From positions 11,287 through 75,286 of IMG/VR virus record IMGVR_UViG_3300007961_000135: a DNA stretch of 64,000 nt. The stretch is one strand, 5' to 3'. The DNA comes from a virus (lineage: Duplodnaviria; Caudoviricetes). Shown piece by piece: positions 7,229 to 64,000 of this stretch (positions are counted from its first letter, which is position 1; the number at the start of each line of letters is the position of its first letter). A program made the translations under genes and the position numbers. The notes under the pieces were generated by a model. It worked only from the letters and a program-made list of their open reading frames with translations. It made no database searches and was not told the origin of the DNA.

Positions 7229-7300
7229 ATTTTGTTTTGTTCATGTTATAATCTGGGAGCGTAATAACAGCCACGGCGCCGAGGCGGAAAGGATTAAGCC

Positions 7301-7450: not shown

Positions 7451-7691
7451 GCCGCTGATCCAGCGGATCAAGCCCATCCCCATTATTCGGGGGTGGGCTT
7501 TTTTCTTTTTCACGCCCTAAGAGATAATCAACAGATACATTAAAGTAATCCGCAAGGACACAAAGAGAGGCGGTGTCTGTTTCTCGTTTGCCGTTTTCGA
7601 TGTTTGTGTATGCTCCACGAGTAACGCCTATAAGCTCCGCAATATCGGCCTGTGTTTTTCCGGCAGCCTTTCTTAGTTCTTTTAATCGCAT
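7371..7691 (-). CDS. CI-like XRE repressor
   Basis: HTH_3 pattern RLKELRKAAGKTQADIAELIGVTRGAYTNIENG; divergent from cro. Confidence 0.9.
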   Translation of the reverse strand: MRLKELRKAAGKTQADIAELIGVTRGAYTNIENGKRETDTASLCVLADYFNVSVDYLLGREKEKSPPPNNGDGLDPLDQRLNELLSQATEDTKQAMIVLLEQTQKP

Positions 7692-7710
7692 ATAGTATCA
7701 CCTCCATAAA

Positions 7711-7831
7711 TATAATGCGTCATTTAGAAACAATCAAGATTATAGCATGATATGCGTCAAAAAGAAGCAAATATTTTAAAAACCTCTTGACAATGCGTCT
7801 ATTAGACGCTAATATGTTTCATAGAGACGCA
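7711..7831. promoter_or_regulatory. Lysis/lysogeny switch: four 17-bp operators and two divergent sigma-A promoters
   Basis: TGCGTC-N5-GACGCA-like sites at 7716, 7753, 7794 and 7815. Rightward TTGACA(7787)-17-TAATAT; leftward TTGATT(7737)-17-TATATT. Confidence 0.8.
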
Positions 7832-7848
7832 GAGCGGGAGGTGATAAT

Positions 7849-8052
7849 ATGAATTTGTCTGAAAAGCGCAAAGAAGCTGGGTTGAAGCAGGAGGAAGTCG
7901 CCGAAATTATCGGAGTATCGAGAGCCGCTTATTCAAATATTGAAATTGGCAGAAGACGCCCCAGCGTTAGCACGGCAAAAAGAATTGCCGCCTTGTTAGG
8001 CTTCGACTGGACAGAGTTTTACGACGACGAACAGACCGCAGACAGCGCGTGA
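7849..8052 (+). CDS. Cro-like XRE regulator
   Basis: 67-aa HTH_3 pattern with GGAGGTG RBS. Confidence 0.9.
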   Translation: MNLSEKRKEAGLKQEEVAEIIGVSRAAYSNIEIGRRRPSVSTAKRIAALLGFDWTEFYDDEQTADSA

Positions 8053-8255
8053 AAGGAGTGGAAGGTGTGAAAATCGAGGCTACACCAAAAGAAATTGCCG
8101 CCCTTGTAATGGCACTACAAGAACGGCAATCCACAAGTCAGGTTTTTGGGCCACAAACCGATATCATTCTACGGACCCCACAGAAAAACCTATCACAGAA
8201 GATAGAGGAACTACAAGCGCATTTGCGTGAATCTCTTTGCCCCCATAAGGGATAA
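8049..8255 (+). CDS. Hypothetical phage protein
   Basis: GTGA overlap with cro; IEATPKEIAALV pattern common in Firmicute phages. Confidence 0.5.
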   Translation: MKGVEGVKIEATPKEIAALVMALQERQSTSQVFGPQTDIILRTPQKNLSQKIEELQAHLRESLCPHKG

Positions 8256-8547
8256 TCACAGCTTCTTTGCAATACAAGAATTCTTCTTCATCGATTTCCG
8301 GTGGCAGTTCTTTTGGGAGATCCAGCGAGAGCGCAAAGTCAAGTAGAGAAAAACTCCACGAGTTCTCTTCTTGAACAAGAAGTTCCTCTTTCGTTGGAAG
8401 TCCGGCCGATGAACACACGATGATTCCAGCGGCAGTATAAAGCAATAGTTTTCGATCTGCCGTAATTGACTGATGAAGATTTGAAAGATCCATTTTCTGC
8501 ACAGCTTGCAGTCGCACAATCAGTTCCTCACGCGACATTCTAAACAT
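8164..8547 (-). CDS. Hypothetical protein encoded antisense within the early operon (moron-like)
   Basis: AGGAGGTG RBS; own promoter-like TTGCGT-18-TAAAAT upstream. Confidence 0.6.
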   Translation of the reverse strand: MFRMSREELIVRLQAVQKMDLSNLHQSITADRKLLLYTAAGIIVCSSAGLPTKEELLVQEENSWSFSLLDFALSLDLPKELPPEIDEEEFLYCKEAVIIPYGGKEIHANALVVPLSSVIGFSVGSVE

Positions 8548-8618
8548 TTTCTCACCTCCTTTCGCCGATATTTTACCACGGCGAGCGGGAGGGACGCAAT
8601 TGTAAAGGAAGTGACAAC

Positions 8619-8837
8619 ATGACCGAGGCAGCAGTTTACCAGCACCCGGACATAGGCAATATCGTCGAGGAAATCCATATAGACACGTCCCTCATTCCCC
8701 CTTGGACACGGGATAATCTTTGCCGTGACGTGCTGGGCCTGGTGCGTAAAATCCGTAAGGACCCCGAACTGAGCCGAAAGCTCGACGAGCGTATAGCGGC
8801 CGCCCGTGAAGCGGCCAAGACCGCAACTGAAAAATAG
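8619..8837 (+). CDS. Hypothetical phage protein
   Basis: RBS plus 72-aa ORF. Confidence 0.55.
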   Translation: MTEAAVYQHPDIGNIVEEIHIDTSLIPPWTRDNLCRDVLGLVRKIRKDPELSRKLDERIAAAREAAKTATEK

Positions 8838-8970
8838 AAATGCCCCGCCGGGTGCTGGAACACCCGATCGGGGCTGTGCACGACCTATCGAGAGTAGGCC
8901 GGACACGAGGATAGTGTATCACGCCTCCTGCCGGCTTGCAATATAAATCAGCAACCAGGAGGAATTTTTT

Positions 8971-9240
8971 ATGGAAGAAAAAACAATCAACCGCAACGAG
9001 GCTCTGGCCGCACTCGCAGAGCACTACCGCCGCCATTACGACAGGTGGGAGGTGCTCATGCTGGAGGCCAAGCGGTCTTTGAGCGGAGATGATGACCGGG
9101 AGGCGTTCAAGGCTATTATGCGTCTCGGACAGCGCAAATCCGCCTACATGGACGGCATCAAGGACGCCGCCGAGCTGGTGGGTATCTCGCCCGAAGAATT
9201 TATGGTCGCAGTAAACGCGGACAGAGACAAGGGCGATTAA
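8971..9240 (+). CDS. Hypothetical phage protein
   Basis: AGGAGG RBS plus 89-aa ORF. Confidence 0.6.
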   Translation: MEEKTINRNEALAALAEHYRRHYDRWEVLMLEAKRSLSGDDDREAFKAIMRLGQRKSAYMDGIKDAAELVGISPEEFMVAVNADRDKGD

Positions 9241-9242
9241 CC

Positions 9243-10181
9243 GTGGCACGGGCAACACGCTTCCTGAAAGAGAGTCAGACGGAATTTGCCAAGGCGTTCC
9301 GGCCTCTCGGTGAACGGTACAGCTCTTGGAAGGTATGGGCGGACTTCGTTGCTCTTGCTGCTATCGCCATTGCCAACCGTTTCGGAGACCCCGACGACAA
9401 GCGCCACCAGGAGCGGGAAAAGGAATACCTCAACATCATGAAGCGGTACACTTCGCAGGAGCAGGAGGTTTTTCCGACACTCTTTTCAATGACCGTTAAA
9501 GCCCTGGATGACAATCCGGAGCAAGACTATCTCGGCGAAATGTTCATGGGTTTGGAGCTTGGGAACCATTGGACGGGTCAGTTTTTTACCCCCTATCATG
9601 TCTGCCAGCTCATGGCCGCCATTTCAATGGAAGATGTTGAGGCAAAGATCGAACGGCAAGGCTGGATAGGAATCATGGATTGCGCCTGCGGCGCCGGCGC
9701 GCTGCTGATAGCCGCAAGGAACCACTTTTACCTTGCAAACCCGCCGATAGGATACCTTCCCGCGCACCTGCACACGCTCTTTGTATGTCAGGATGTTGAC
9801 CGCACGGCGGCGCTCATGTGCTACATTCAGCTTTCCCTTTTGGGCTGTGCCGGCTATGTGGTCGTCGGCAACTCGATTACAAACCCCACCATCAGCCTCA
9901 ACGGGAATCCCGTACTCCCCATTGAGAAAGAGGGACAGGAAATCTGGTGTATGCCGATGTTCCACGACCAGGTTTGGGTCATGCGTCAGGCGTTTGCCAG
10001 AATGGACGGACTTGTCCGGGCGGCGGCGCCGGCGGAAGTGTCCGAACCGAAAGCCCTTAACAGAGCCAAAAAAGCCGAGTTAACCCCGAAAATGTGCAAA
10101 GATGTGCAAGATTTGCACGTTAAGGAGCAAAAAGTCGCGGAGTTAAATGTGACCGCGACCGGACAGCTCACACTATTCTGA
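9243..10181 (+). CDS. N6-adenine methylase-like protein (SAM-binding part of the HsdM family)
   Basis: GQFFTPYHV and motif I DCACGAGALL; no NPPY/F seen. Confidence 0.7.
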   Translation: MARATRFLKESQTEFAKAFRPLGERYSSWKVWADFVALAAIAIANRFGDPDDKRHQEREKEYLNIMKRYTSQEQEVFPTLFSMTVKALDDNPEQDYLGEMFMGLELGNHWTGQFFTPYHVCQLMAAISMEDVEAKIERQGWIGIMDCACGAGALLIAARNHFYLANPPIGYLPAHLHTLFVCQDVDRTAALMCYIQLSLLGCAGYVVVGNSITNPTISLNGNPVLPIEKEGQEIWCMPMFHDQVWVMRQAFARMDGLVRAAAPAEVSEPKALNRAKKAELTPKMCKDVQDLHVKEQKVAELNVTATGQLTLF

Positions 10182-10189
10182 AAGGAGAA

Positions 10190-10588
10190 ATGACAATGAT
10201 TATCAGTGTACAGTTCAAATACAAGAAGTTCGACACCTACGGAGGCCGGAAATACTCCTACTTCTGCGATATCGACGGCGTGAAGGTCGGAGATCTGGTA
10301 AATGTGCCGGCAGGCAAGGGCGAAGGCGTTGCCCGGGTGACGGATATAAACGTCCCGGAGGAAAGCATTTACCCGGCAATCAGAAAAATCATGAAGTCGG
10401 TGATCTCCATAGCGGAGGATCCGGCACCGTGTGATAAGCGCAGCTGTGAAACCTGTGACGAACTCACACCAATTGGAGAGGGCGACCATATTTGCGGGGC
10501 TGATCCTCACAAAATGCCTATCTGCGAGTATTCCCCCTCTGACGAATACCTCTGGTGCAAGGGCACGTATTACAGGAGGAAAACATGA
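10190..10588 (+). CDS. Hypothetical phage protein with Cys-rich C-terminus
   Basis: GAAAGGAG RBS; YSYFCDIDGVKVGDLVNVP pattern. Confidence 0.65.
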   Translation: MTMIISVQFKYKKFDTYGGRKYSYFCDIDGVKVGDLVNVPAGKGEGVARVTDINVPEESIYPAIRKIMKSVISIAEDPAPCDKRSCETCDELTPIGEGDHICGADPHKMPICEYSPSDEYLWCKGTYYRRKT

Positions 10589-10799
10589 TGTATCGGGAAT
10601 GCCCGGCTTGCGGGCTACACCTCGACCCGGGCGAAAAATGCGATTGTCAGGAAGAAAGGGTGAGAACCAGTAAATGAAACGGCGGTTTTTGGGACAAAAA
10701 AAGAGGAGCCGACGCGAACGCCGACCCCCTAGGGAACAAGCCCATTGTACCGCAGATGTTCAGTAGAAGTCAAGACAGAACGAACACAAGGAGGAATAT

Positions 10800-12773
10800 A
10801 TGATACTTCAATCCATGACCCTGACGAACTTTCAGGGGATCCGGGACCTGCACCTGGATTTCAACGGGAAAAGCGGTTCGATCTACGGTACGAACGGGGC
10901 AGGCAAGACCACCGTATACAACGCTTTCACCTGGCTGCTGTTCGACAAGGCCAGCACCGGCGCCAAAAACTTCACCCCCAAGACCAAGGGTCCTGACGGC
11001 GACCTCCACAATCTCGATCACAGCGCCGAGGCCGCATTCATCATGCAGACGGGCGAAACCGCCACCTTCAAGAAGGTGTATCACGAGGTCTGGAAGAAGA
11101 AGCGCGGCAGCTCTGCCGAGGAGTTTGACGGTCACACCGTTGACTATTACATCGACGGCGTGCCGATGAAGGAGAAGCAGTACACCGAAACGCTTCAAAA
11201 CTACTGCGGCGGTATCGAACGCATGAAGATACTCACCATGCCGGATTACTTCGCCGAGGTCCTCCCCTGGGACGAGCGCCGGAAGATACTTATTGACCTT
11301 TGCGGAGATGTGACCGACGTGGACGTTATACGTTCCAGTGACACTCTGAAAGACATCGACGCCTATCTCCGAAAGCCCGGCACCGCAGACCAGTTTTACT
11401 CCGTGGAGGAGTACAAGAAAATCGCCTCCGTCAGAAAGGGCGAAATCAACAAACAGCTCCAGGCCCTTCCCGGGCGCATAGACGAGGCCCGGAGGGCCGT
11501 ACTGGAAGCGGATGGGCTGACTTTCCCTCAGATACAGGAGCGAATAGAAAAGCTTGCCAAGCAGCGCCAGCAGCTTATGGAGCACCGCGCCGGCCTGCTT
11601 AATAGCGGCACCGCAGTCACAGAGGCCAAAAAGAAGACCGCCGAAGCGGAAGCGGCGCTCAACGAGGCACGGAACGCATACCTTTCCTCGTCCGGAAACG
11701 CGAATGCCGAGATAATCGAGGAAATCTCCAATCTTCAAGCGCTCCTTGGTAAGTCGAGGAACCAGGCTGCCGAATTGAGGCAGCAGGCCTCAGAGCTTCG
11801 GAGGGCTGCTGACCGTATGACAGACCAGCGGCAGGCGCTTCTCCTGGACTATGCCGAAACGCAGGCTCTTGTGTGGGACGAAGCACAGGAGACATGCCCC
11901 GCGTGCGGTCAGCGCCTCCCGGCGGATCGTATCGACGAGCTGAAAAGTGCTTTTAACCAACACCGAAGCGACCGACTTATGGCCATTAACGTGCGCGGTC
12001 AAGCCGAATGCAGCTCGTCCATGATAGAAGACGCTATTTCCCAGGCTGAAAAGGCAGAGCGCATTGCCGAGGCAAACGATACCGAAGTCAAGATAACGCA
12101 GGAGCGTATCAAGGGACTTAATGACAGACTCTCCGAACAGCCGAAATTTGAGCTGACTGAGGAATACTTTACCCTCAGTAAAAACGTCACTCTCGCCCGT
12201 ATGGCCGAGAAAGAGGCCAAAGAGGTCAATGTTCCAGACACCTCGGTCATTGACCGGCAGATACTCGACCTGGGTGAAGCTCTTGACGAGGCCCAGCAGA
12301 TGAAATCACGAATTGAGCTGGCCAATGCCCAGCAGCGCCGTATTGCCGAGCTCGAAGACCAAGAAAAGCAAATGGGCGCCGAATATGAGACGCTTGAATA
12401 TGGCATATGGCTCTGTGACGAGTTCACCAAGGCAAAGGTCAAAATGCTCACCAGCCGTATAGACGGCAAGTTTGAAAACGTGCGCTTCCGGCTGTTCCAG
12501 GAGCAGTTAAACGGCGGAGTCAAGGACGATTGCGAGGCCCTGGTTCCCAATGATGAAGGAGTTCTGGTGCCGTATCGGGACGCAAATACCGCCGGATGTG
12601 TCAATGCGGGGCTGGAGATTATCGAGGTTCTCTCTAACCACTGGAATATGAAAATGCCTGTGTTTGTGGACAATGCGGAGCGGATCGTCGAGCTTTTACA
12701 GACGAACACGCAGGTGATCCGGTTTGAGGTGTCTAAGGCAGACAAGGAACTGAGGCTATCGCTTGATGGGTAA
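10800..12773 (+). CDS. AAA/SMC-like (Rad50-type) ATPase of the phage recombination module
   Basis: Walker A GTNGAGKT, long coiled coil, CPACGQ hook, Walker B-like PVFVDNAE. Confidence 0.85.
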   Translation: MILQSMTLTNFQGIRDLHLDFNGKSGSIYGTNGAGKTTVYNAFTWLLFDKASTGAKNFTPKTKGPDGDLHNLDHSAEAAFIMQTGETATFKKVYHEVWKKKRGSSAEEFDGHTVDYYIDGVPMKEKQYTETLQNYCGGIERMKILTMPDYFAEVLPWDERRKILIDLCGDVTDVDVIRSSDTLKDIDAYLRKPGTADQFYSVEEYKKIASVRKGEINKQLQALPGRIDEARRAVLEADGLTFPQIQERIEKLAKQRQQLMEHRAGLLNSGTAVTEAKKKTAEAEAALNEARNAYLSSSGNANAEIIEEISNLQALLGKSRNQAAELRQQASELRRAADRMTDQRQALLLDYAETQALVWDEAQETCPACGQRLPADRIDELKSAFNQHRSDRLMAINVRGQAECSSSMIEDAISQAEKAERIAEANDTEVKITQERIKGLNDRLSEQPKFELTEEYFTLSKNVTLARMAEKEAKEVNVPDTSVIDRQILDLGEALDEAQQMKSRIELANAQQRRIAELEDQEKQMGAEYETLEYGIWLCDEFTKAKVKMLTSRIDGKFENVRFRLFQEQLNGGVKDDCEALVPNDEGVLVPYRDANTAGCVNAGLEIIEVLSNHWNMKMPVFVDNAERIVELLQTNTQVIRFEVSKADKELRLSLDG

Positions 12774-16067: not shown

Positions 16068-16593
16068 AACGCTCGTCATCATGGGAATTTTACAGTCTGC
16101 ATTCCCCAGCTTTTACAAGGGCATGGGTAAGAAAAATGCTTATTCCGTCGCTTCGCTCTGGCACCAAATGTTTGCTGACGATGACTTCCAGGATGTGCAG
16201 GCGGCCGTCAAAATACTCCTTGCGACCAAGACTGATGATTTTCCACCGACTATCGGTGCCGTCAAGGAGAAGCTGACGCAGTTGCACGCCGTCGGAGAAA
16301 TGAGCGCCCAGGACGCCTGGACGCTGGCCGCGAAGGCCGCTGCCGGAAATCTGAGCTGGGAGAAGTTGCCGCCCTTGGTGCAGAAAGCAATAGGTTCCCC
16401 TGCCGTTCTGCGGGAATGGGGCGTTACCGATGAAAGAGCATTCCACACCGTGATTTACAGTCAGTTTATCAAGGCTTATAAAATACAGCGGCAGCGCGAG
16501 CGAGAAATGGCAGCCATACCCGCCGAGGTGCGGGACATGCTTACGGCAATCGCTGACAAAATGTCGCTGCCGGAAAGGAGCGAACTTACATGA
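16054..16593 (+). CDS. Replicative helicase loader/inhibitor (SPP1 G39P-like)
   Basis: Follows the initiator; LWHQMFADDDFQDVQAAVKILLAT...FPPTIGAV pattern. Confidence 0.7.
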   Translation: MTENETLVIMGILQSAFPSFYKGMGKKNAYSVASLWHQMFADDDFQDVQAAVKILLATKTDDFPPTIGAVKEKLTQLHAVGEMSAQDAWTLAAKAAAGNLSWEKLPPLVQKAIGSPAVLREWGVTDERAFHTVIYSQFIKAYKIQRQREREMAAIPAEVRDMLTAIADKMSLPERSELT

Positions 16594-16780
16594 GTTACCA
16601 GACATTCACAAAATTAAGTCCGAGGGGGCGCCGCCGGGCTGTGGTGGTTATGAGCGTAGAAATAATCTTATTAGCGGTGATTTTGATTATCGCCGGTTGC
16701 CTATTAAGTCTTGGCGACTATTTCATTCAGTTACTTTTGGGTGTGGCATGATTGCCGCAATTCAAGGAGGAAAAGCAAAA

Positions 16781-17386
16781 ATGACAGCAAAGATATTAGC
16801 ACTGACAGCCTTAATTTTTTTAGGCTCGCCATGGACGAAAGACGCGGACAAGCCGGTACCCGTCAATTACATCGAGAACAAGGCAATTATCGAGGCCGAG
16901 ACCGCAGAATACAAAGAAAACCATTTTCGTGACGTCACGAAAATGATAGAGGCCGAACCTGTAAGCAATTCCGACATGTTCGGTGTTTCCGAACAGCTGA
17001 CAGACGGCTGGAGCGAGGCCGACGTCGAAATGCTCGCCTGTGTCATTTACCAAGAGGCGGGGGCCGATTACATAGCGGACAATACCCGGTACATGGTCGG
17101 CGACGTCGTTCTCAACCGCGTGGCGGATCCGCGCTTCCCAGACGCCCTTGAGGATGTGCTTACACAGAAAGGCCAGTATGGGCGCTTTTATTGGACAGGC
17201 ATTATATGGCCGGAGCGGGCGGACAGTCCGAATGAGGCCTGCGCTGTCCAGAGAGCATACGACACAGCCCGTGCGCTGCTCTCCGGCGACCACAGCGAGC
17301 TATACGGCGCAGGGTACGTCTGGCAGGCTGAGTTCAAGCAGGGTACAGACATCATCTATGCCGACGGAATCTATTTTGGAAGGTGA
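16781..17386 (+). CDS. SleB-like cell-wall hydrolase (Hydrolase_2) with signal/anchor
   Basis: LACVIYQEAG, VGDVVLNRV, RFPD, VLTQKGQY motifs. Confidence 0.8.
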   Translation: MTAKILALTALIFLGSPWTKDADKPVPVNYIENKAIIEAETAEYKENHFRDVTKMIEAEPVSNSDMFGVSEQLTDGWSEADVEMLACVIYQEAGADYIADNTRYMVGDVVLNRVADPRFPDALEDVLTQKGQYGRFYWTGIIWPERADSPNEACAVQRAYDTARALLSGDHSELYGAGYVWQAEFKQGTDIIYADGIYFGR

Positions 17387-54005: not shown

Positions 54006-55100
54006 ATGGGAAACTTCGATCTTTCCGCTCTGGCACTCAAGGCCGTATGCCCCGGCAACGACCTTCTCTATGACGACAAGGGCCTGCCCTCCGTCATGGT
54101 CTATGTTCCCAAGTTCAAGATTTCTGACGTCATCACCGGCGGCAGCAACAGCGTACACCCGGCTTTCATCATCAACGGCACCGAGGTTGACGGTATCTGG
54201 ATTTCCAAGTACCAGAACATCGTCAAGGGCGGCAGAGCCTACAGCCTGCCGTGCGAAGACCCGGGCACAAACATAACGTTTGACAGCGCCCGCCAGGCTT
54301 GCGAGGCCAAAGGCGAAGGCTGGCACCTGATGACGCTGGCTGAGTTTAAAGCGATTGCTCTCTGGTGCAAAAAGCACGGTATCGCGCCGAAGGGCAACAA
54401 CAACTACGGCAAGGATTCCGAAGACAGCACCTACGACGGTATCCCGACGACCTACGGCACCGGTGCCGACGCCGGTAAAATCTTCCATATCGCTACCGGC
54501 TCCGGCCCCATAAGCTACTCCCACGACGGCACCCTTTCCGGTATATGGGATCTGAACGGCAACGTGACCGAATGGCAGGGCGGCGCCCGTCTTGTTCACG
54601 GAGAGCTGCAGATCCTCGCCAACAACAACGCTGCCGACGCCGACAACTCCCAGGCCGCGAACTCCGCGCAGTGGAAAGCTATCGACGGCACGGACGGTTC
54701 CCTTATCACACCGAATGGCTTCGGCACCACCACAAACAGCCTCAAGCTGGACTATGTGAGCAGCGCATGGAAGTGGATAACCGGCACTATAAGCAGCAGC
54801 GCCGACAGCTCCAGAAACTGCGCATTCGCCAGCGTCACCGCAGACAACACTGTCTGCGCGGCGGCACAGGAGCTCCTTTACACCCTCGGCCTGCTGCCCG
54901 ACAGCTCCACCGCCACCGATTACCACGGTGACGCCCTCTACGCCAACAACGCGGCAGAGGAGCGCCTTTTCAGCGCCGGTGGCCACTACAGCAACGGTGC
55001 CAGCGCGGGCGTGTTCTACCTCGGCGGCAGCAACACTCGCTCGTACTCCGACGGCCACGTTGGTTTCCGCGCCGCTTTTGTAAATCTGCCCTCTGCTTAA
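54006..55100 (+). CDS. DGR target protein, CLec (FGE-sulfatase-like) fold, probable receptor-binding protein
   Basis: WISKYQN, FDSARQAC, WHLMTLAE, DLNGNVTEW, terminal GFRAA; 3' end matches the TR. Confidence 0.9.
   Translation: MGNFDLSALALKAVCPGNDLLYDDKGLPSVMVYVPKFKISDVITGGSNSVHPAFIINGTEVDGIWISKYQNIVKGGRAYSLPCEDPGTNITFDSARQACEAKGEGWHLMTLAEFKAIALWCKKHGIAPKGNNNYGKDSEDSTYDGIPTTYGTGADAGKIFHIATGSGPISYSHDGTLSGIWDLNGNVTEWQGGARLVHGELQILANNNAADADNSQAANSAQWKAIDGTDGSLITPNGFGTTTNSLKLDYVSSAWKWITGTISSSADSSRNCAFASVTADNTVCAAAQELLYTLGLLPDSSTATDYHGDALYANNAAEERLFSAGGHYSNGASAGVFYLGGSNTRSYSDGHVGFRAAFVNLPSA
54962..55078 (+). repeat. DGR variable region (VR)
   Basis: 117 bp; 106/117 identical to 55638-55754; all 11 mismatches lie opposite TR adenines. 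Confidence 0.97.
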
Positions 55101-55108: not shown

Positions 55109-55157
55109 GTTGCCCCGCGATAGCGGGGCAACGTCTCCTTACCGCGCGCAGCGCGGT
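55109..55157. promoter_or_regulatory. DGR target-recognition hairpins downstream of the VR/IMH
   Basis: GTTGCCCCGC-GATA-GCGGGGCAAC (10-bp stem, GRNA loop) and ACCGCGC-GCA-GCGCGGT. Confidence 0.75.
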
Positions 55158-55173
55158 CCGCGCAAAATTTATG

Positions 55174-55195
55174 AAATAACGGATTACGTTATTTT
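55174..55195. promoter_or_regulatory. Palindromic operator-like site upstream of avd
   Basis: AAATAACG-GATTA-CGTTATTT; 20/21 match to 62608-62628 on the reverse strand. Confidence 0.6.
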
Positions 55196-55268
55196 ATAAC
55201 GAAATACACTGTCCCGCCCCCTGCCTGGAGTATAATCAAAACACTTTCCGAGGGAGCGGGGCAGCAAA

Positions 55269-55619
55269 ATGGCAGAGGATTTGAAACTCCAACAGAAGAT
55301 CTACGACATGATGTTGTACGCCTGGCCAGTGCTGGCTCAATTCCCGAAATCCGAGAAGTTCACCCTCGCCGCCGACATCAAGAGGAATATGGACGTCCTC
55401 ATGGAGCGGTGTATCGAGGCGAAAAAGAAGTATTACAAGAAAACCACCCTGCACGACATGGACGTGACCAACGAGAAGATACAGGTTTATGTCCGTCTCG
55501 CCTTCGACCTCAAATACATAAACAGCCACAAGTATAGCGTATGGTCAGGGAAGCTGGTGGAAATCGGAAAGATGTTAGGTGGATGGATCAAGGCCGTCAG
55601 CGGTCCGAAAGCCACTTAA
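55269..55619 (+). CDS. avd: DGR accessory variability determinant (four-helix bundle)
   Basis: LAQFPKSEKFTLAADIK...EIGKMLGGWIK; located between target and TR. Confidence 0.92.
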   Translation: MAEDLKLQQKIYDMMLYAWPVLAQFPKSEKFTLAADIKRNMDVLMERCIEAKKKYYKKTTLHDMDVTNEKIQVYVRLAFDLKYINSHKYSVWSGKLVEIGKMLGGWIKAVSGPKAT

Positions 55620-55637
55620 TATAGGGAACTGACCGCC

Positions 55638-55754
55638 GCGCCTTTTCAACGCCGGTGGCAACTACAACAACGGTGCCAACGCGGGCGTGTTCTACCTCAA
55701 CGGCAACAACACTCGCTCGAACTCCAACGGCAACATTGGTTTCCGCGCCGCTTT
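55638..55754 (+). ncRNA. DGR template repeat (TR)
   Basis: Intergenic between avd and RT; 11 AAC codons in the VR frame; followed by a hairpin-rich spacer (CAGAGCC-TACG-GGCTCTG). Confidence 0.95.
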
Positions 55755-55933
55755 ACCGTCAAGCCAGATACCCAGAGCCTACGGGCTCTGCCTCAGTGCA
55801 GCGGTGATAAAGGGGTCTGTTCCCTCAGTCATGTTTATGGCAGAAAAATGATATGCCGCATATACCGGCGTTCCGGCTGCTTCCCCAGCGCGGCACGGCG
55901 CCTGTAAGGTGCGGCCTTCGGGGGTACGACGAA

Positions 55934-57010
55934 ATGGAAAAGCACTCTCATGTGTTTGAGCAATTCGCAACCTTTGACAACATGTATGACGGCTACCTCC
56001 TTGCGCGCCGCCAGAAACGGTACAAGGCGGCAGTGCTGGACTATTCAGTCCGCCTCGAAGAAAACATCATCGACAGCGTAAACCGGCTCCAGTGGAAGGA
56101 GTACAGGCCAGGGAGGCTCTTTCCGTTCTACGAATACTTCCCCAAGCTGCGCCTTATCCATTCGCTCCCTTTCCCCGACCGCGTAATAAACTGCGCGGCC
56201 TATAAGGTGCTTTGGCCGATTTACAGCCAGAGCTTTTACGAGCACAGCTACGGGAGCATACCGGGCAAGGGCACGCTGTCCGCCGTCCAGCAGCTCCAGC
56301 GCTGGATGAAGCGGGTGAAGCGCAAGGGCTGGTATGCCGGCAAGCTGGACATCGCCAAATTCTTCTTCAGGATACCGGTTGATGTGCAGCTCCGGGAGCT
56401 GGGACGCCCTTTGGACGATGCGGATATGATGTGGTTCCTGGAAACGGCCATAAGGTGCGACGGGCGGCCCTTTGGACTCCCGCTCCATTGCACCGACGTC
56501 ACCACGGCCGAGCGCATAGCCGGCATCGGAATGCAGGTGGGATCTCTCATATCTCAAATGACGGCAAATGTCGTGCTCACTCCCCTCGATCATTACATCA
56601 AGAGGGAACTGCGGGTACCATACTATATTCGGTATATGGATGACATGATTATCCTCTGCCCGTCCAGAGAGCAGACATGGGATGTAATAACGGCCGTCGA
56701 TGATTATCTGCGTGAGGAGCTCGGCTTACAGCTCAACAACAAAACGGCTGTTATGACTGTCGGTGAGCGGGTGGAGTTTGTCGGGCGCAAAGTCACGCCG
56801 GACAGGATCGAGCTGCGGAAAAGCACGTCTCTCCAGATGAAGCGCCACCTCTCCTGGGTGATGGAGCACTATTCCACTGGGGAGCTGCCGCTTGAATACT
56901 GTCAGCAGGTCATGGACTCGTATTTAGGGCTGATGAAGCATGCTGACTGTGACGAGCTGCGGAGCAAGGTCTTGGACGATTTCGTTCTCGTCCGGCACAG
57001 CAGAAGTTAG
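55934..57010 (+). CDS. DGR reverse transcriptase
   Basis: FPDRVIN, SYGSIPGKG, KLDIAKFF, GMQVGSLISQ, YIRYMDD, VEFVG; no intron maturase or endonuclease domains; start reassigned to ATG 55934. Confidence 0.95.
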   Translation: MEKHSHVFEQFATFDNMYDGYLLARRQKRYKAAVLDYSVRLEENIIDSVNRLQWKEYRPGRLFPFYEYFPKLRLIHSLPFPDRVINCAAYKVLWPIYSQSFYEHSYGSIPGKGTLSAVQQLQRWMKRVKRKGWYAGKLDIAKFFFRIPVDVQLRELGRPLDDADMMWFLETAIRCDGRPFGLPLHCTDVTTAERIAGIGMQVGSLISQMTANVVLTPLDHYIKRELRVPYYIRYMDDMIILCPSREQTWDVITAVDDYLREELGLQLNNKTAVMTVGERVEFVGRKVTPDRIELRKSTSLQMKRHLSWVMEHYSTGELPLEYCQQVMDSYLGLMKHADCDELRSKVLDDFVLVRHSRS

Positions 57011-57058
57011 TATGTAGGTTTACATACCGAAAATGATGTAATGATATCATTCCCGTGG

Positions 57059-57088
57059 GGAGCTGCGAAAGCGGCTCCTTAATTTTTT
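57059..57088 (+). terminator. Intrinsic terminator after the RT
   Basis: GGAGCTGC-GAAA-GCGGCTCC followed by a T-rich tract. Confidence 0.7.
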
Positions 57089-57106
57089 ATGTGAAAGGAA
57101 ACTGTT

Positions 57107-57592
57107 ATGAATGAAAAGTTGATTGCCGCGAAAATTGGCATAAGCGTAATCGCAGCGGCTTTGACAGATTTTTTGGGCTGGAAGGGAGTGCTGATGTTAG
57201 TCCTTGCCTTTCTTATGGCTATTGACTACATTTCCGGGACACTTGCCGCCAAAAAGAACGGCACGTGGTCGAGCACCATTGCGCGGCAGGGGTTATTTCA
57301 TAAGGGAGGCACTATTATCATGGTGCTTGTGGCGCTCTTTATGGACGTTATTTTCACAGTAGCGTTTCCGCATATCCCGGTTATAGGCGGTGGCATTGAA
57401 AACCCCGGAATATTCCTGCCGCTCGTTTCCGTGTGGTATATCATTACGGAAATGGGCTCAATTATGGAAAACTCCGCCAAAATGGGCGCGAAGGTACCAA
57501 AGTGGTTCCAAAAGGCCGTTGAAAAAGTCGGTGAATCCATAGATAGAACCGGCGAAGCACAGACGAAGGAGGAAGAGCATGACGACACCTGA
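57107..57592 (+). CDS. Holin (Phage_holin_4_1 type)
   Basis: TM segments, IDYISG, SSTIARQGLFHK, EMGSIMEN. Confidence 0.9.
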   Translation: MNEKLIAAKIGISVIAAALTDFLGWKGVLMLVLAFLMAIDYISGTLAAKKNGTWSSTIARQGLFHKGGTIIMVLVALFMDVIFTVAFPHIPVIGGGIENPGIFLPLVSVWYIITEMGSIMENSAKMGAKVPKWFQKAVEKVGESIDRTGEAQTKEEEHDDT

Positions 57593-58352
57593 TAAACTCA
57601 TAAATGTCGCCTTGGGCGAGGTGGGGTATTTGGAAAAAGCCTCAAACGCCCAGCTGGAGGGAAAGACCTCCAACGTAGGCAAAGCAAACTACACGAAATA
57701 CGGCGCATGGTACGGCATAAACCCCGGTGCCTGGTGTGCTATGTTCGTTTCCTGGTGCGCAATGAAAGCGGGAGCCAGCGATATAATCCCGAAATTCGCT
57801 TCATGCTCTCTTGGCATTGCCGCTTTTAAGAAGCTCGGAAGGTGGCACACCAGGAGCGGATACGAGCCGAAGAGGGGAGACATTATCTTCTTTGGCGATA
57901 AAAACGGAGCGCCCCAGCACACGGGCATTGTCTATAAGGTGTCCGCTGCAAGGGTCTATACCATTGAGGGCAACAGCGCCAACGGTGATAAGGTTATTCC
58001 AAACGGCGGCGCCGTCGTTTTGAAGGATTACACACGGGACGACCCCAGCATACTCGGATATGTTAACCCCGATTGGCCGGAAGAGAAGACGGAAGTTGAC
58101 AAAACGGACAATAAGTCAACTGAGGAGCCCGAAAAGTCAACTCTCGGCGAAGATAAGTCAACTAAAGAGTTGCGTTTCAACCGCATATCCGAAATGCCGG
58201 AGTGGGCGAGAAATGACATGATGTCTCTCTGCGACAAAGGCATACTCAAAGGAAACGGCGGCGAAAAGGACGGCAATGGCCGACCCGCCGACCTGGATTT
58301 GAGCCTCGATATGATAAGAGTGCTGGTGATGTGTAAGCGCATGCACCAGTAA
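57579..58352 (+). CDS. Endolysin, CHAP domain
   Basis: WCAMFVSWC, HTGIV, IEGNS. Confidence 0.9.
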   Translation: MTTPDKLINVALGEVGYLEKASNAQLEGKTSNVGKANYTKYGAWYGINPGAWCAMFVSWCAMKAGASDIIPKFASCSLGIAAFKKLGRWHTRSGYEPKRGDIIFFGDKNGAPQHTGIVYKVSAARVYTIEGNSANGDKVIPNGGAVVLKDYTRDDPSILGYVNPDWPEEKTEVDKTDNKSTEEPEKSTLGEDKSTKELRFNRISEMPEWARNDMMSLCDKGILKGNGGEKDGNGRPADLDLSLDMIRVLVMCKRMHQ

Positions 58353-58355
58353 ATG

Positions 58356-58410
58356 AAAGCACCCCCTTGACAGGATATTTCTCCTGTTGAGGGGGTGCTT
58401 TTTTGTTTTT
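58356..58410. terminator. Bidirectional terminator between the lysis genes and the right-arm operon
   Basis: AAAGCACCCCC...GGGGGTGCTTTTTT long stem. Confidence 0.8.
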
Positions 58411-58542
58411 ATACACCAGAGTGTAAAACGGGCGGTTTATTCGGCCTCTGAGGGCCGCCTTTGTCCGGTCATGTTTCCGTATTCTCGCTCCCGGAAACGC
58501 CGAGGAGCGCCGCGAGGTGAGACGCAGCGGGCCTTTGCGCTC

Positions 58543-61500
58543 CTATTCGTGCGTAGCCTTGAAATTCTCAATCGCCCACTTGTTCCCCGTGGCCGCGACC
58601 GCCGCTTTTGTGCGCTCATATGGCGTAGCGGGAGGCAATACCTCCTCGCGCTGGTCCTCGATCAGAATGTCGTGGATGACGTACTGCTTGTTACCGTCTG
58701 CAGTCTTGTAGTACATGGGCGTGACGGCCACCAACGGGCCGGGCTTGCCCTCAACATATGCCTGAGCCGCTTCCAGGGTGCTGTACCCCACCTGGGATAT
58801 GTGGCCGGCGGGGTGATTCCCGCCAGCCGGCAGATATTCTATGAACTCGATGATATAGGCTTTCATGCTGTCTCCTTCCTTAAAAGCTGATTGCCATACT
58901 CCATTCGTTCAAAGGGAGCGGATTTCCGACCATGTCCCGGATCGCCTCGTCCATGCCGCATTCATCACAGACATAGACGTGGGCGTGCCGGCTCAGGGCG
59001 TTGCGGACCAGTTTCTCGTTCATGCGGTCATAGCCGCAACGGGGACAAGGAAACTTTTCGCCCCGCTCCTGCAGCGGCATAAGGCCCTCAATAAGGAGCT
59101 TGGCTTCTTCGACTGTTTTCATTTGTTATCCTCCTCTAATCTCTTAAATCCAAAGCTGTCACAGAACCAGGTGGACTTTGTCGGTGGGTCTGTGCTGTTA
59201 TCCCAAAGGTTGACTATGTCGCTGACGCTCATGCTGCGGCCGGTGTAGCCCTCTGGTCTTTTGTCAGTATTGTAGGCGCTGAACAGGTGCTCACAAGCTG
59301 TAATCTCATCTGGTGCCTCCACTACACCGCTGTCGGCGGTGTAATAGCGGTCAAGATCAACGCCCCCGAAAAGTTCAATAGTGCGTTCATAACACTCAAA
59401 GAGGCGATAAACATTTTCGGCCGGCACGTCCCGGATCTGGTCGAAGGTGTAGGTGTATTTCATCGGCTGTTCCTTTCTCCAGGTCTATTGCCCGGCCGGG
59501 AGGGCTTATTATCACAACTCAAAAAGTGCGGCAACTCCGATTTCTGCGCATTTTTTCGTGATATGCTCCATCTCAGCAATCATCACATCCAGCGAGCAGA
59601 TGCAGCCGCCATCGGCAATTTCCTTGAATCTGCTGCGAATGTCGTGCGGCACAATTCTGCACATGTCGTGCGATATGACGATGATCGTGAATTTAACTGT
59701 TTCCATGCTATGTCCTTTCTGCCCTCGTGACCTCCGGGGCGTGTATCTTGTCAATCGTCCAACAACGGGGCGTCGTCGATGATTTTGCGGATGGTCTCTA
59801 TCTCTTGCTCCATATCGGCCCAGAACCGGGCGTTTCCAGGGGCGTTCTTGAAGCTCGGCGTTCCATCCGGTTCCGTTTCATTGGCAAGCCGTTCCCAGGT
59901 CTCGCGCTCACCCTTGCGGAAGTTGGTAGTCATCAACAGGAAGCTCGTCAGCGTGACGGCCTGCTCATGGGTGAGTGTGATCGTCTTTATCATGGTGGCC
60001 TCCTTATTCAATGGCAGATTCAATGTTGCTTATGGCCTCTTCCAGATTGCTTACGGCCTCGTCCATGTTGTCACAGGCTTCCTCGGCCTTCTCGTACCGC
60101 TCTGAGGTCTGGAGGTTTTCGGGCATGGCGTCGCGGTATTCCTCCTCCTCCTCTTTAAGCTCCTCAAGGCTGGATTTCAGCTCCTCCAGCTGGTCGATGA
60201 TCTCCTGCAAGCTCTTTCTGCGGATTCTGTTCATGTAATGTCCTTTCTCCCCGTCGTGCCGGTAGGCCAGCTTCAAAGGATTTAATCCAGCATGCTTGGG
60301 TCAACTGCGGTGGTTTCGGTAAACTCGGCTTTTTTGTCTATCAGCAGCGCGCAGTTATAATCTACATCCACAACCTTATAGGTCTTTCCCTCATAGCTTA
60401 CGGTCTTTCCAATCCACTGTTTTTTCATCCACCGGACGTGTTCCCTGTAGGTCATCACGTTTCCTTTCTGCCCTCGTGACCTCCGGGGCGGGATTTCGTT
60501 TTACTGCGCCAGCCTGAATACATTGTAGAGGAAATCGCCCTCTTCATTGTGAATGCTCTCGACAACCGTGAGTTTTTCAAGAGCCTGGCTCATCGGGCCA
60601 CCATAGATGCCCAGTTCCCAGAGGCCAGCAGCCTGGGCCTTTTTCCAGAAGCAATTAACCTCGATCCCGGCTGACGGCTTTCCTGCGAAAAGGTGATGCT
60701 TGGTTCCAAAAGCGGCCCGGATGAAGTTCTCGCACCATTCAACCTTTACCTGTTTCATTCTGCGCCTCCTTAGTGTAGGTCAAAGACCTGTCCGCGAGCT
60801 TTAATGGTGTATTTGACATACCTCTTGCCGGTTCGGCTCTCGATGTGGTGCTTCGTGACTCTCTCGATCTCTGAGAGGCGGACGCTCTTGCAGCGGGGTT
60901 GACGGCGAATAAAGGGAAGAACAATCTCTTTGGCGGCCTCATTGAGCGGACGCCCTTCAGGCTCCCACCTGTTGCGGTATCTGTCCCACCGCTTATCCTG
61001 CTGGGCGACAGCTTCCTCCTTGGTTCCGTACCACTTGGAGTATCTGCCGTTTCGGTATCCGATCTGGTAAAACTCTTCCCGGTAGAGTTCTTCAAGGCTA
61101 TCGTTCCAAATCGTATCTCCGTATGTGTTGTCGCTGTTTGGAAAAAACCTTCCGGTTGCTTTACCGACCGTCAGTGCTACCAGATCGAAGTCGTAAAAGC
61201 GGGTCTCTTTTCCCTCTCCGGTGTGCTCATGGGCACTCTCGGGGCCCAGCAGAATGCGGATGAGGTCTTTACCGTCGGTCAGGTCAATCTTTGCAATCTC
61301 GCCCTGGTGTCCGCTCATCGTCGCGGTGTTGATTGTGTACCCCTTTCCGATCCACTCGGAAACGACCTCGGTGAACTTGCGGTTTATAGTCTCGAACTTC
61401 ATGGTGTTCCTCCTTATTTGTCTTCCCGGCGGTCAAGCTCGGTCATCATTTCATGGTTTTCGGCGATCAGCTTACGCTTCAGATTGATGTTTGTGGTCTT

Positions 61501-61584
61501 TCCAAGAATTATGCGATTCGCGATGATTTTGTTTGTCAGCTCTTTGCTGGTCATGGCCCTGATTCCGGGGGCTTTCATTTTCAT
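58543..61584 (-). other. Right-arm operon of small unknown genes (58543-58866, 58880-59122, 59119-59463 YodL-like, 59512-59706, 59751-59993, 60004-60234, 60282-60455, 60501-60758, 60770-61402, 61414-61584)
   Basis: Co-directional ORFs with strong RBSs; RPEGYTGRSMSVSDIV is YodL-like; 60282-60455 and 61414-61584 were read manually. Confidence 0.7.
59713..60490 (-). repeat. 29-bp exact direct repeat including the RBS (59713-59741 and 60462-60490)
   Basis: CGCCCCGGAGGTCACGAGGGCAGAAAGGA precedes two gene starts. Confidence 0.85.
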
Positions 61585-61655
61585 TTCCTCCCTGCGATAT
61601 AGATGATGGTGAAAATACTTAAAACTAAGATTGCGATGTCGATTATTATCTCCAT
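61581..61655 (-). CDS. 24-aa hydrophobic peptide MEIIIDIAILVLSIFTIIYIAGRK
   Basis: Read manually; single TM segment with basic tail; ATGA-coupled to the next gene. Confidence 0.5.
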   Translation of the reverse strand: MEIIIDIAILVLSIFTIIYIAGRK

Positions 61656-61721
61656 ATCTCTTGACATTGGCGAGTATTTGTTTTATCCTCTTGGTGGGGG
61701 GAGGTTTCCCTCCCCCCGCCT

Positions 61722-61841
61722 CTACTCAAGCAGTTTTTCGATTATATCGATAACCGACTTGATGAGATTGAGGATTGCGGTGATCATGACCAGCTTTGCG
61801 AGCGTCTTGTCGTGGTCGCCGCTTTTCTTTTGTTTCGCCAT
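61722..61841 (-). CDS. 39-aa peptide MAKQKKSGDHDKTLAKLVMITAILNLIKSVIDIIEKLLE
   Basis: GAAAGGAGGT RBS; first ORF after the consensus promoter. Confidence 0.65.
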   Translation of the reverse strand: MAKQKKSGDHDKTLAKLVMITAILNLIKSVIDIIEKLLE

Positions 61842-61868
61842 CGGTCTCTTACCTCCTTTCTGTCTATT

Positions 61869-61966
61869 ATTATAAACGAAAACCTTTCATTTGTCAATAC
61901 TTTTCTTCAAGTTTTTTCTTGATTTTTCAATTTTTTATTGACTTTTGAAAAATAATCGTTTATATT
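61869..61966. promoter_or_regulatory. Divergent sigma-A promoters
   Basis: Minus strand: perfect TTGACA(61897)-17-TATAAT(61874). Plus strand: TTGACT(61938)-17-TATATT. Both carry TCGTTTATA overlapping the -10. Confidence 0.8.
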
Positions 61967-61991
61967 TGCTATATGAAGGAGGTGAACCATT

Positions 61992-62201
61992 GTGAACATC
62001 ACAATGAAGATTAAAATGGCTGAAACATATGCCCAAATTAAAGAGGCTGAATTGGCGCGGAGGCTTGGAACTTCCTCGCAGGCACTCGGCCAGCGCATTA
62101 AGACGGGTAAGTTTACAGCTGCAGAATTGGAGAATATTGCGGCTGCGCTCGGCTGCGAGTTCATTTGTAAATTTCGCTTCCCTGACGGTACAGAAATCTA
62201 A
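61992..62201 (+). CDS. Small XRE-type HTH regulator
   Basis: AELARRLGTSSQALGQRIKTGKFTAAELENIAAALGCEF. Confidence 0.85.
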   Translation: MNITMKIKMAETYAQIKEAELARRLGTSSQALGQRIKTGKFTAAELENIAAALGCEFICKFRFPDGTEI

Positions 62202-62253
62202 TCCCAGGAAGCATCGTTGCTTGTCCAACAGTTTAGACAACCGAGTGTAGAGC

Positions 62254-62284
62254 AAGCCCCGGGCGGCACGACCGCCCGGGGCTT
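62254..62284. terminator. Hairpin between the convergent HTH genes
   Basis: AAGCCCCGGGCGG-CACGA-CCGCCCGGGGCTT. Confidence 0.7.
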
Positions 62285-62292
62285 TAGGGAGC

Positions 62293-62544
62293 CTATCTCT
62301 TTTGCTTATCCGTGCCAGCACGGTTTTTTGTTTGAACATCCCCGTTAGGCACTCGAACAATGATGTCTGTCGGCTCACAGTCGAGAGCTTCACAAATTAA
62401 GTCGAGGTGTTCAAGGTTGATTCGCTCGGCAATCTCGTGGTACATGTCGTTGATTGTCGATGCTCTTATGCCGGTGGCGCGGGCGAGATCGGCCTGCGTC
62501 CAACGCAGCTCGCCAAGCTTGCGGGACAGTAAAATCCTTATCAT
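62293..62544 (-). CDS. Cro/C1-type (HTH_26-like) regulator next to attR
   Basis: WTQADLARATGIRASTINDMY...LDLICEALDCEPTDII. Confidence 0.9.
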   Translation of the reverse strand: MIRILLSRKLGELRWTQADLARATGIRASTINDMYHEIAERINLEHLDLICEALDCEPTDIIVRVPNGDVQTKNRAGTDKQKR

Positions 62545-62607
62545 AGCCTTTTGCTCCTTTACGGTAAATTCTACCGATTATTGTAGATACCCGCAGGAGT
62601 TTGGTAG

Positions 62608-62628
62608 AAAATAACGTAATTCGTTATT
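62608..62628. promoter_or_regulatory. Palindromic operator-like site upstream of the HTH gene
   Basis: AATAACG-TAATT-CGTTATT; near-identical to the site upstream of avd. Confidence 0.6.
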
Positions 62629-62636: not shown

Positions 62637-62676
62637 AGAGAGACTATTACCTCGAAATCAAGGTAATAGTCTCTCT
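62637..62676 (-). terminator. Intrinsic terminator just inside attR
   Basis: 16-bp perfect stem AGAGAGACTATTACCT/AGGTAATAGTCTCTCT with a T tract on the minus strand. Confidence 0.8.
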
Positions 62677-62748: not shown

Positions 62749-62795
62749 GTTCGTTTTAGTCAACTTTGGTGGAGCAAGATGCACCAAAGTCGAAC
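62749..62795. other. attR of the prophage / attL of the neighbouring element (core 62764-62772)
   Basis: Same 47-bp architecture and CTTTGGTGG core as 4460-4506. Confidence 0.8.
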
Positions 62796-64000
62796 ACCTC
62801 GCCGGAGGCCTCCGCGAGGCCTTCGACGAATGGCAGGTCGACCGTCTCCGCTCCGTTCTTCGTGTAATTGTAGACGATCCGGATCCGGTCGTCGTACAGA
62901 TAGACGGCGTTCACGAAGTTCTCGATCACCTTCCATTGAAACGCCGGATCCGTGACGTCACCGCCCCGGAACCTCTCGAGCCAGTAGATCACCTGCTCCT
63001 TCGAGAGGGCCGGCGTCTCGAAGCGAATCCGCTCGATCTGGTCCTGAAGCTGCCGGCGCTGCTCCTCGAGCTCCTCGAGCCTCGCCTTCGTCGTCTCCGT
63101 GATGATCCCTTGCTCGATCGCGGTCATGACGTTCCGGATGGAGCGCTCGACGTCGCCGAGCTGCTTCTGCAGGAGGGGACCCTCTCCGGCCTCAGCCTCA
63201 GCACGCTGCAGATCCACGACGGCGTCGGCGATCCTCTCGATCACAGAGTCGACGAGGACCCGCTGCACAGTCTCCCGGACGACGAGCTCCTCGATCCAGT
63301 CCTTCTTCACCGGCTTCTTCTCACAGTCCCGGCGGCGCTTCCGGCCGACGCAGGTGTAGTAGTTATGCTTCGCCCCTGTTTTGGAGGTCCCGGACTCTCC
63401 GACCATGGCGGACCCGCAGCGGCCGCAGAACAGCCGGCCGGTCAGCAGATAGTCGACGCGGGACCACGACGCGGCGGGGGCCTTCGCGTTCTTCGCGATG
63501 ATCTCCTGAGCCATATCGAACGTCTCCCTCGTTATGATGGCGGGGATCCCGCCCTCGATCCTGACGTCGCCGTACTTATACACGCCGACGTACCTCTCAT
63601 TCCGGAGAACGGTCCGGAGCGAGTTCTTGTTAAACTTGACGCCGCGGGAGGTCCTCAGGCCCCGGGCGTTCAGATCCGCGCAGATCTCCGTCGGGCTCAT
63701 GCCGTCGATATACATGGCGAAGATCTCCCGGACGAGGGCGGCGCCGGCGGGCTCGATCGCGTACCGGCCGTCCGGACCTTTGCAGAGGCCGAGCGGCAGC
63801 CGGCCGTTATTGACCTTGCACTCGAGCGCGTTCGCGTGCATCCCTCGCTTTATGTTCTGGGCCAAGTTCGCCGAGTAGTACTCCGCGGAGCCTTCGAGGA
63901 CGCTCTCGAGCAGGATCCCTTCCGGGCCCTCTGGGATGGACTCCTTCGCGTACATGACCCGGACGCCGTACTTCTTCAGCCGCGCTTTATACATGGCCGA
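62756..64000 (-). CDS. Second large serine recombinase (5' end outside the window), belonging to an adjacent GC-richer element
   Basis: Recombinase domain, CGRCGSAM zinc ribbon, coiled coil; homologous to 4415-6037 but with markedly more GC-rich codon usage. Confidence 0.9.
   Translation of the reverse strand, partial: SAMYKARLKKYGVRVMYAKESIPEGPEGILLESVLEGSAEYYSANLAQNIKRGMHANALECKVNNGRLPLGLCKGPDGRYAIEPAGAALVREIFAMYIDGMSPTEICADLNARGLRTSRGVKFNKNSLRTVLRNERYVGVYKYGDVRIEGGIPAIITRETFDMAQEIIAKNAKAPAASWSRVDYLLTGRLFCGRCGSAMVGESGTSKTGAKHNYYTCVGRKRRRDCEKKPVKKDWIEELVVRETVQRVLVDSVIERIADAVVDLQRAEAEAGEGPLLQKQLGDVERSIRNVMTAIEQGIITETTKARLEELEEQRRQLQDQIERIRFETPALSKEQVIYWLERFRGGDVTDPAFQWKVIENFVNAVYLYDDRIRIVYNYTKNGAETVDLPFVEGLAEASGEVFDFGASCSTKVD

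Follow-up and report, generated by a model that had tools for sequence, protein, structure and literature searches.

The two palindromes and the genes they precede

The DNA analyzed here, hereafter the window, comprises 64,000 nt within the 75,286-nt IMG/VR record IMGVR_UViG_3300007961_000135 of a virus of the Caudoviricetes. It holds a diversity-generating retroelement (DGR), consisting of the accessory gene avd, a template repeat (TR), a reverse transcriptase (RT) gene and a target gene ending in a variable repeat (VR), together with a gene for a small Cro/C1-type helix-turn-helix (HTH) protein of the HTH_26 family. Nearly identical palindromes precede avd and the HTH_26 gene, and comparison with related phages indicates that the regulatory link between this small XRE protein and the phage DGR is real and conserved, very likely transcriptional and probably activating. 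The features concerned are as follows.

54006–55100, plus: target gene of the DGR, closing the tail region and recognized by its VR/TR repeat (VR 54962–55078); no Pfam match
55111–55134, plus: GC-rich hairpin with a GATA loop just past the VR, the usual DGR target-site stem-loop (from sequence)
55175–55193, centre 55184, plus: putative DGR operator AATAACG-GATTA-CGTTATT (from sequence), kept before avd or TR in 67 distinct relatives
55196–55201, plus: third half-site ATAACG, 20 nt past the left half-site; the conserved counterpart in relatives is yTxAC
55231–55236, plus: -10 hexamer (TATAAT) for avd-TR-RT transcription; palindrome centre 47 nt upstream, no -35
55269–55619, plus: avd, bAvd accessory protein (Pfam bAvd PF22296, E 1.3e-29)
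55638–55754, plus: TR, a direct repeat with the VR
55751–55895, plus: structured RNA across the TR-RT junction, Rfam RT-14 (RF02921, 48.1 bits, exactly the gathering score)
55853–57010, plus: DGR RT (Pfam RVT_1, E 3.4e-22), TR immediately upstream
62293–62544, minus: 83-aa Cro/C1-type HTH protein, HTH_26 (Pfam, E 5.2e-18), the proposed regulator
62568–62573, minus: -10 hexamer (TAGAAT) for HTH transcription; palindrome centre 46 nt upstream; in relatives mostly extended, TGtTAGAAT
62610–62628, centre 62619, minus: putative HTH operator AATAACG-AATTA-CGTTATT, kept in 86 distinct sequences, roughly 82 nt ahead of the homologue's ATG

An earlier note on this DNA had drawn attention to a pair of matching 21-mers, and both were located where it had placed them: AATAACGGATTACGTTATTTT before avd (55175–55195, plus strand) and AATAACGAATTACGTTATTTT before the HTH gene (62628–62608, minus strand). 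The two are identical at 20 of 21 positions and each contains AATAACG-N5-CGTTATT. The gaps from 21-mer to ATG, given as 74 nt for avd (ATG 55269) and 64 nt for the HTH gene (ATG 62544), were likewise confirmed, as was the TATAAT of the avd promoter with no accompanying -35. The further remark that the sites stand one helical turn apart is true of their distances to the start codons; it does not hold for the -10 hexamers, from which the palindrome centres lie 47 and 46 nt upstream, and thus at an equivalent position. In the DGR operator of this phage the arms of the palindrome extend to 13 bp (55169–55199).

With up to two mismatches, the palindrome was found at these two positions only in the window, and with up to one mismatch at these two only in the whole record. 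Shuffled sequences contained 0.16 matches on average, and at least two matches occurred in 2 of 100 shuffles. No weaker copy (up to three mismatches, with a -10 at the proper distance) was detected elsewhere in the window, and hence there is no link to the early/immunity region.

The retroelement itself is intact and has recently been active. The VR and TR form a 117-nt direct repeat of 91% identity in which every mismatch falls at a TR adenine, demonstrating that the element has been active. The arrangement is that of the BPP-1 type, with the RT beside the TR, adenine-only TR/VR differences, a VR that ends the target gene, and an Avd; 3' of the RT gene follow a holin and then a CHAP lysin. 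Homologues of the target gene stand before avd in related loci, which also carry the same hairpin (...CGCGATAGCG...) at differing distances from the palindrome. Participation of the palindrome in recognition of the VR target was considered and rejected, given that its spacing to the GATA hairpin varies (approximately 32–50 nt, judged by eye) and its spacing to the -10 hexamer is fixed.

Conservation of the paired sites in related phages

The co-conservation of the palindrome before avd and before the HTH gene in related DGR prophages, which would be expected of a shared regulator, was borne out in three independently drawn sets of loci and in a site-first scan. Set (a), anchored on the HTH protein in IMG/VR, comprised the best 80 of 277 relatives; set (b) was anchored on Avd; and set (c) was again HTH-anchored, with one genome per species. 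Most loci of set (a) carry ATAACG-N5-CGTTAT approximately 82 nt before the HTH start and a second copy just 5' of avd or RT, usually 7–8 kb away and on the opposite strand. In set (b), avd is preceded by the site, and wherever the flank suffices it includes an HTH homologue; in one arrangement group the HTH gene is encoded past the lysis genes on the strand of the DGR, with its own site retained, and in the only group whose flank of about 9.5 kb holds no HTH gene (L151–L154), the site is absent too. The two-site pattern was found again in set (c), the hosts of which are gut Clostridia, mainly Oscillospiraceae (Vescimonas, Faecousia, Faecalibacterium, Ruminococcus, Flavonifractor, Yanshouia) with some Lachnospiraceae.

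When the sets were pooled (approximately 240 loci), 223 of 237 site copies were HTH-proximal or situated no more than 1.5 kb upstream of a DGR RT. The pairing spans two DGR layouts, avd-TR-RT and promoter-TR...RT, the RTs of which are only about 25% identical; in the second layout a TR-like sequence directly follows the promoter. It is also kept with the HTH gene on either strand relative to the DGR. A site-first, gene-blind scan of IMG/VR with the pattern ATAACG-N5-CGTTAT-N37/38-TATAAT returned 64 stretches, 57 of them directly 5' of a DGR, five or six before a small gene (SNLQIIEALC...) between the RT and lysin genes, and one or two elsewhere. The HTH gene was present in nine of the ten matches that had at least 8 kb of flank, and the tenth, the chance-like L291, is without a DGR.

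Two observations on these relatives may be recorded here. In some of them, a third promoter with the same operator and -10 geometry stands before a gene, absent from the window, that encodes a non-hydrophobic protein of 54–64 aa (..SNLQIIEALCKLVEQQSQL..) between the RT and the CHAP lysin (L005:5726, L022:5956, L024:6521, L064:6908, L195:6791, L245, L253, L276, L283, and L290). Two loci with an RT and no site, L044 (approximately 16100–17200) and L047 (approximately 7850–8950), were considered as counter-examples and set aside, as a VR-like coding sequence replaces their TR and promoter; each appears to be a defunct DGR whose promoter and TR were lost in a VR x TR recombination.

Geometry of the promoters

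Alignment on the palindrome centre of distinct sequences, 67 of them DGR-proximal and 86 HTH-proximal, through which the -10 hexamers were identified across phages, revealed a common architecture. The distance from centre to -10 hexamer is 46 nt in 46 of the 67 DGR promoters and in 70 of the 86 HTH promoters. The palindrome is kept, as is an element resembling a third half-site, yTxAC, 20 nt past the left half-site, and the DNA between the elements drifts; at the HTH promoters the counterpart of this element, TCTAaC, likewise follows the palindrome. At 16–18 nt from the -10, the best match to a -35 in the aligned promoters does not exceed the shuffled level and never attains five of six positions. 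A sigma-70 scan returned no promoter at avd, and its sole match at the HTH gene overlaps the start codon. TGn-extended -10 hexamers are found in 63 of the 86 HTH promoters, compared to 21 of the 67 DGR promoters.

With a good -10 hexamer 46–47 nt from the palindrome centre, no -35, and a start assumed approximately 7 nt past the predicted hexamer, a bound protein would have its centre at about -58 or -59. An operator so placed would leave RNA polymerase unobstructed. A fixed helical position of the binding site and the lack of a -35 are hallmarks of activator-dependent promoters. From the position of the operator, its fixed spacing and the missing -35, we infer activation rather than repression; the architecture thus suggests activation from about -58 with positive autoregulation, the sign of control being read from promoter geometry.

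An additional inverted repeat was observed in the HTH promoters of relatives, formed by TTCTAAC after the palindrome and GTTAGAA in the -10 region, approximately 27 nt apart. In its counterpart in the window (62586–62610 and 62566–62575, minus strand) both arms have changed compatibly, to TCTACC...GGTAGA. It may serve as a second operator or fold into an RNA structure at the 5' end.

Co-variation of half-site and residue 29

The HTH_26 protein matches its Pfam family at 65.5 bits against a cut-off of 22 and has the expected HTH fold: the AlphaFold2 model (mean predicted confidence, pLDDT, 82) places the two helices of the motif at residues 17–24 and 28–35, with 28–35 as the recognition helix. 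Residue 29 would accordingly be the second residue of the predicted recognition helix, a classical base-contacting position. Within the family, I26, R27, T30, and I31 are invariant, and variation is concentrated at residues 28–29. Among 126 distinct protein/operator combinations, the half-sites were distributed over the residue classes as follows.

HTH residues 27–30 RPST/RAST: ATAACG on both halves, 69/79
HTH residues 27–30 RPTT: ATAACG..CGTGAT, 22/27
HTH residues 27–30 RPAT/RAAT: ATTACG..CGTAAT, 5/7
HTH residues 27–30 RPNT/RRNT: ATATCG-containing, 6/10
HTH residues 27–30 RSQT: xxTCCG, 2/2

The tracking of residue 29 by the half-site points to the HTH_26 protein as the binder. In several phages (L129, L092, L159, and the L105 group), both promoters on the same contig carry the variant operator. 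Taken with the co-conservation described above, this co-variation supports the claim of the earlier note that the product of 62293–62544 may regulate both its own gene and the DGR.

The L105–L134 sub-clade (for example, L106 and L127; RSQT) is distinctive in other respects. Its members have TTTGCCG-N5/6-CGGTAAA before avd, still 46 nt from TATACT, and TTTTCCG-N5-CGGAAAA before the HTH gene, and they encode a second, divergent HTH paralogue of 36–38% identity.

Proposed mechanism

Binding of the HTH_26 protein to the palindromes at its own and the DGR promoters is very probable, and we consider it reasonably probable that it acts there as an activator. A dimer would bind ATAACG-N5-CGTTAT before its own promoter and before the avd-TR-RT promoter, possibly with an additional contact at the third half-site, 20 nt downstream. 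Bound at about -58/-59, the protein would most likely recruit RNA polymerase, and it would thus be a positively autoregulating activator. The TGn-extended -10 of the HTH promoter could supply the basal expression that starts the loop, and the DGR promoter, mostly lacking TGn, would depend on the HTH protein. The TR RNA, Avd, and RT, and hence mutagenic retrohoming into the tail-fibre VR, would then be made only while the regulator is on.

Surroundings of the HTH_26 gene

On its upstream side, the HTH promoter is separated from a recombinase gene by a terminator.

62637–62676, minus: strong terminator hairpin (18-bp stem, then a T-rich tail) separating the HTH promoter from the integrase gene
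62756–64000, minus: large serine recombinase and probable phage integrase, truncated N-terminally by the contig end (Recombinase E 6.5e-22, Zn_ribbon_recom E 4.2e-14)

The gene order recombinase, terminator, site, HTH is repeated in relatives. A second small HTH gene (61992–62201, plus strand; 69 aa, weak HTH_26/DUF6471) converges on the HTH_26 gene, with promoters nearby at 61938–61966 (plus) and 61897–61869 (minus). Divergent from it, and behind a perfect TTGACA-17-TATAAT promoter, runs a minus-strand operon of small uncharacterized genes. The minus-strand open reading frame 61907–62164 was dismissed as a gene, being an antisense artefact of the plus-strand HTH gene at 61992–62201.

At the other end of the record, the left 19 kb (record 1–11400, which is L084, plus window 1–6100) looks like a separate mobile element. 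Its content includes ParB, two NikA-like proteins, Fic/Bro-N, DUF6414, a type IIG-like methylase/restriction-modification (R-M) protein, DUF6088/AbiEi-like, and TnpV, and it also holds a complete large serine recombinase (window 4415–6037).

Alternative interpretations

The sites might instead belong to a repressor: the same protein, at the same positions, would keep its own gene off and avd-TR-RT silent until its removal, for example at induction. Small Cro/CI-type proteins encoded beside integrase genes usually repress, and CylR2, SaPI Stl, and 434 Cro, all repressors, are among the folds nearest to the HTH_26 model; moreover, with a perfect TATAAT and the TGn extension in 21 of 67 cases, the DGR promoters might fire without an activator. 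The placement of the operator, however, is not that expected of a repressor. It ends approximately 30 nt before the -10 and overlaps neither the -35 position, the -10, nor the start; retention of the 46–47 nt spacing while the intervening DNA drifts is indicative of contact with RNA polymerase on one face of the helix and not of steric occlusion; and a second, loop-forming operator is absent near both promoters. Repression is therefore judged rather unlikely. That another protein, such as a host factor, the small HTH protein of 61992–62201, or the HTH_3 protein of 7371–7691, binds the sites while HTH_26 merely co-travels appears improbable. The evidence is all comparative, and the co-occurrence may largely reflect shared ancestry, for which the contrast test described below was under-powered. 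Nevertheless, the half-site follows residue 29 of HTH_26 over five residue classes and the palindrome precedes the HTH_26 gene in 86 distinct sequences spanning many host genera, while the second small HTH was detected in a minority of site-carrying loci and there are no sites near the early/immunity region of this phage.

The palindromes could also be something other than operators, namely sites of a serine recombinase inverting the 7.4 kb between them, weak terminators, or a chance repeat, with some features of the locus in favour of such readings. The copies are inverted and one lies beside a serine recombinase gene; each is situated past a gene end with Ts after it, and the first folds as RNA to -12.3 kcal/mol. 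Against recombination, the 5-nt spacer is odd and lacks the central dinucleotide cut by serine recombinases, copies in direct orientation and contigs without a recombinase also occur, and neither the dyad around a 2-bp crossover nor the orientation-dependent pairing of hix, gix, and att sites was found. A terminator is contradicted by the asymmetric half-sites of the Thr-29 class (ATAACG..CGTGAT), which break the hairpin, and by the second site, which folds to only -4.2 kcal/mol and already lies behind a strong terminator. Chance is excluded by the shuffles, the pooled conservation, and the site-first scan. With the spacing to the -10 hexamers fixed as well, a non-operator role is very improbable.

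Several observations nevertheless weigh against activation of the DGR by the HTH_26 protein, or limit what it can be taken to mean. The -58 position rests on predicted -10 hexamers, and the PHROGs families nearest to the protein carry the label 'transcriptional repressor.' The DGR-side operators track residue 29 in part, with several Thr-29 phages retaining ATAACG/CGTTAT before avd. Tree-based independent contrasts numbered only three to four on supported branches, and despite all being concordant (sign test p >= 0.125) were under-powered; the raw association between half-site and residue 29 thus appears strong, but these few contrasts do not establish phylogenetic independence. Finally, approximately half of the HTH loci of set (c) have no DGR within 10 kb. 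In an exact-site search of five such DGR-less genomes, G001 and G005 held the site only at the HTH gene's own promoter, G003 had one copy, with a GC-rich spacer and on another contig, that is probably fortuitous, and two had no exact copy. These loci and this search indicate that the protein is not exclusively a DGR factor. On present comparisons, the HTH_26 protein is best described as a putative autoregulator, with the DGR promoter as a single further target wherever a DGR is present, and not as an obligate DGR component.

Relationship to known regulatory systems

The closest parallels to activation by HTH_26 are functional. Controller (C) proteins of R-M systems are XRE-fold dimers of approximately 80 aa that bind palindromes before their own genes and, in a positive loop, switch on the gene of a hazardous enzyme. 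The HTH_26 protein resembles C.AhdI, C.Esp1396I, C.BclI, and C.PvuII in being a small XRE protein with a palindrome before its own gene, a likeness of functional analogy. In a Foldseek search, its model gave SaPI2 Stl N-domain, VanUg, CylR2, and 434 Cro as the best fold matches, with C.BclI, C.Esp1396I, and C.AhdI also among the matches (E 3e-3 to 8e-3); at the sequence level, no family match to C proteins was detected, and a search of the PDB by sequence returned no matches. Unlike C proteins, HTH_26 has no R-M context: no R-M gene lies within 10 kb, its neighbours being the serine recombinase, the small HTH gene, and small uncharacterized genes, and control of a restriction endonuclease is not part of its setting. 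The second target of C proteins is a co-transcribed downstream gene, that proposed for HTH_26 a distinct promoter at a distance of 7.4 kb, and in place of the C-box, a pair of OL and OR sites abutting or overlapping the -35, there is a single palindrome with a third half-site, centred at about -58.

The promoter architecture is reminiscent of that of P2-like late promoters, at which the Ogr/Delta/B activators recognize the dyad TGT-N12-ACA near -55. Both have a good -10, no -35, and a dyad site fixed near -55 to -60. The likeness is confined to architecture: Ogr-type activators are zinc-finger proteins of Proteobacteria phages acting on structural late operons, whereas HTH_26 is unrelated to them and its proposed target is a retroelement. 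In fold, the closest solved structures include CylR2 of Enterococcus faecalis and VanU(G), small stand-alone XRE proteins having a five-helix HTH with N- and C-terminal beta strands (TM score 0.66–0.71; 2xiu/1utx and 3tyr). These are dimers of approximately 66–75 aa that bind inverted repeats and share 22–29% identity with HTH_26. Their targets differ from those proposed here, and CylR2 is a repressor, the operator of which overlaps the promoter.

A 2024 preprint states that the mechanisms regulating DGRs "await discovery," and our search of the literature found no described regulator or operator dedicated to a DGR, the sole phage case it returned being indirect (PMC12135933). In that case, silencing of RepC_HP, the CI-like repressor of a Bacteroides hankyphage, raised phage expression, replication, and DGR activity (PMC12135933). 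RepC_HP is thus, like the regulator proposed here, a phage-encoded protein whose state alters DGR activity. It differs in being a general lysogeny repressor, with the DGR effect accompanying induction of the whole phage, and no operator at the DGR promoter was described (PMC12135933), whereas the regulator of the window has two sites only, at its own and the DGR promoter. The type of module is ordinary; its wiring to a DGR is new.

Implications for DGR biology

DGRs are the most powerful natural systems of targeted mutagenesis and are found most densely in the human gut. A bolder version of the mechanism can be put forward tentatively, as something possible but more doubtful than probable: positive autoregulation would make a bistable switch, such that only a fraction of lysogens transcribes TR, avd, and RT, and tail-fibre hypermutation would be inherited as an on or off state of the prophage instead of running constantly at a low level. 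The switch would be dedicated to this purpose and common to a large clade of gut Clostridia phages, divided into specificity groups by residue 29. As a candidate for the switch that activates DGR mutagenesis, the pairing of the HTH_26 gene with the DGR is both concrete and widely conserved. Its candidate parts are defined: the regulator is 83 aa long, the operator spans 19 bp, the promoter geometry is fixed, and specificity variants occur naturally. These parts could serve as a compact control module in engineered DGR mutagenesis.

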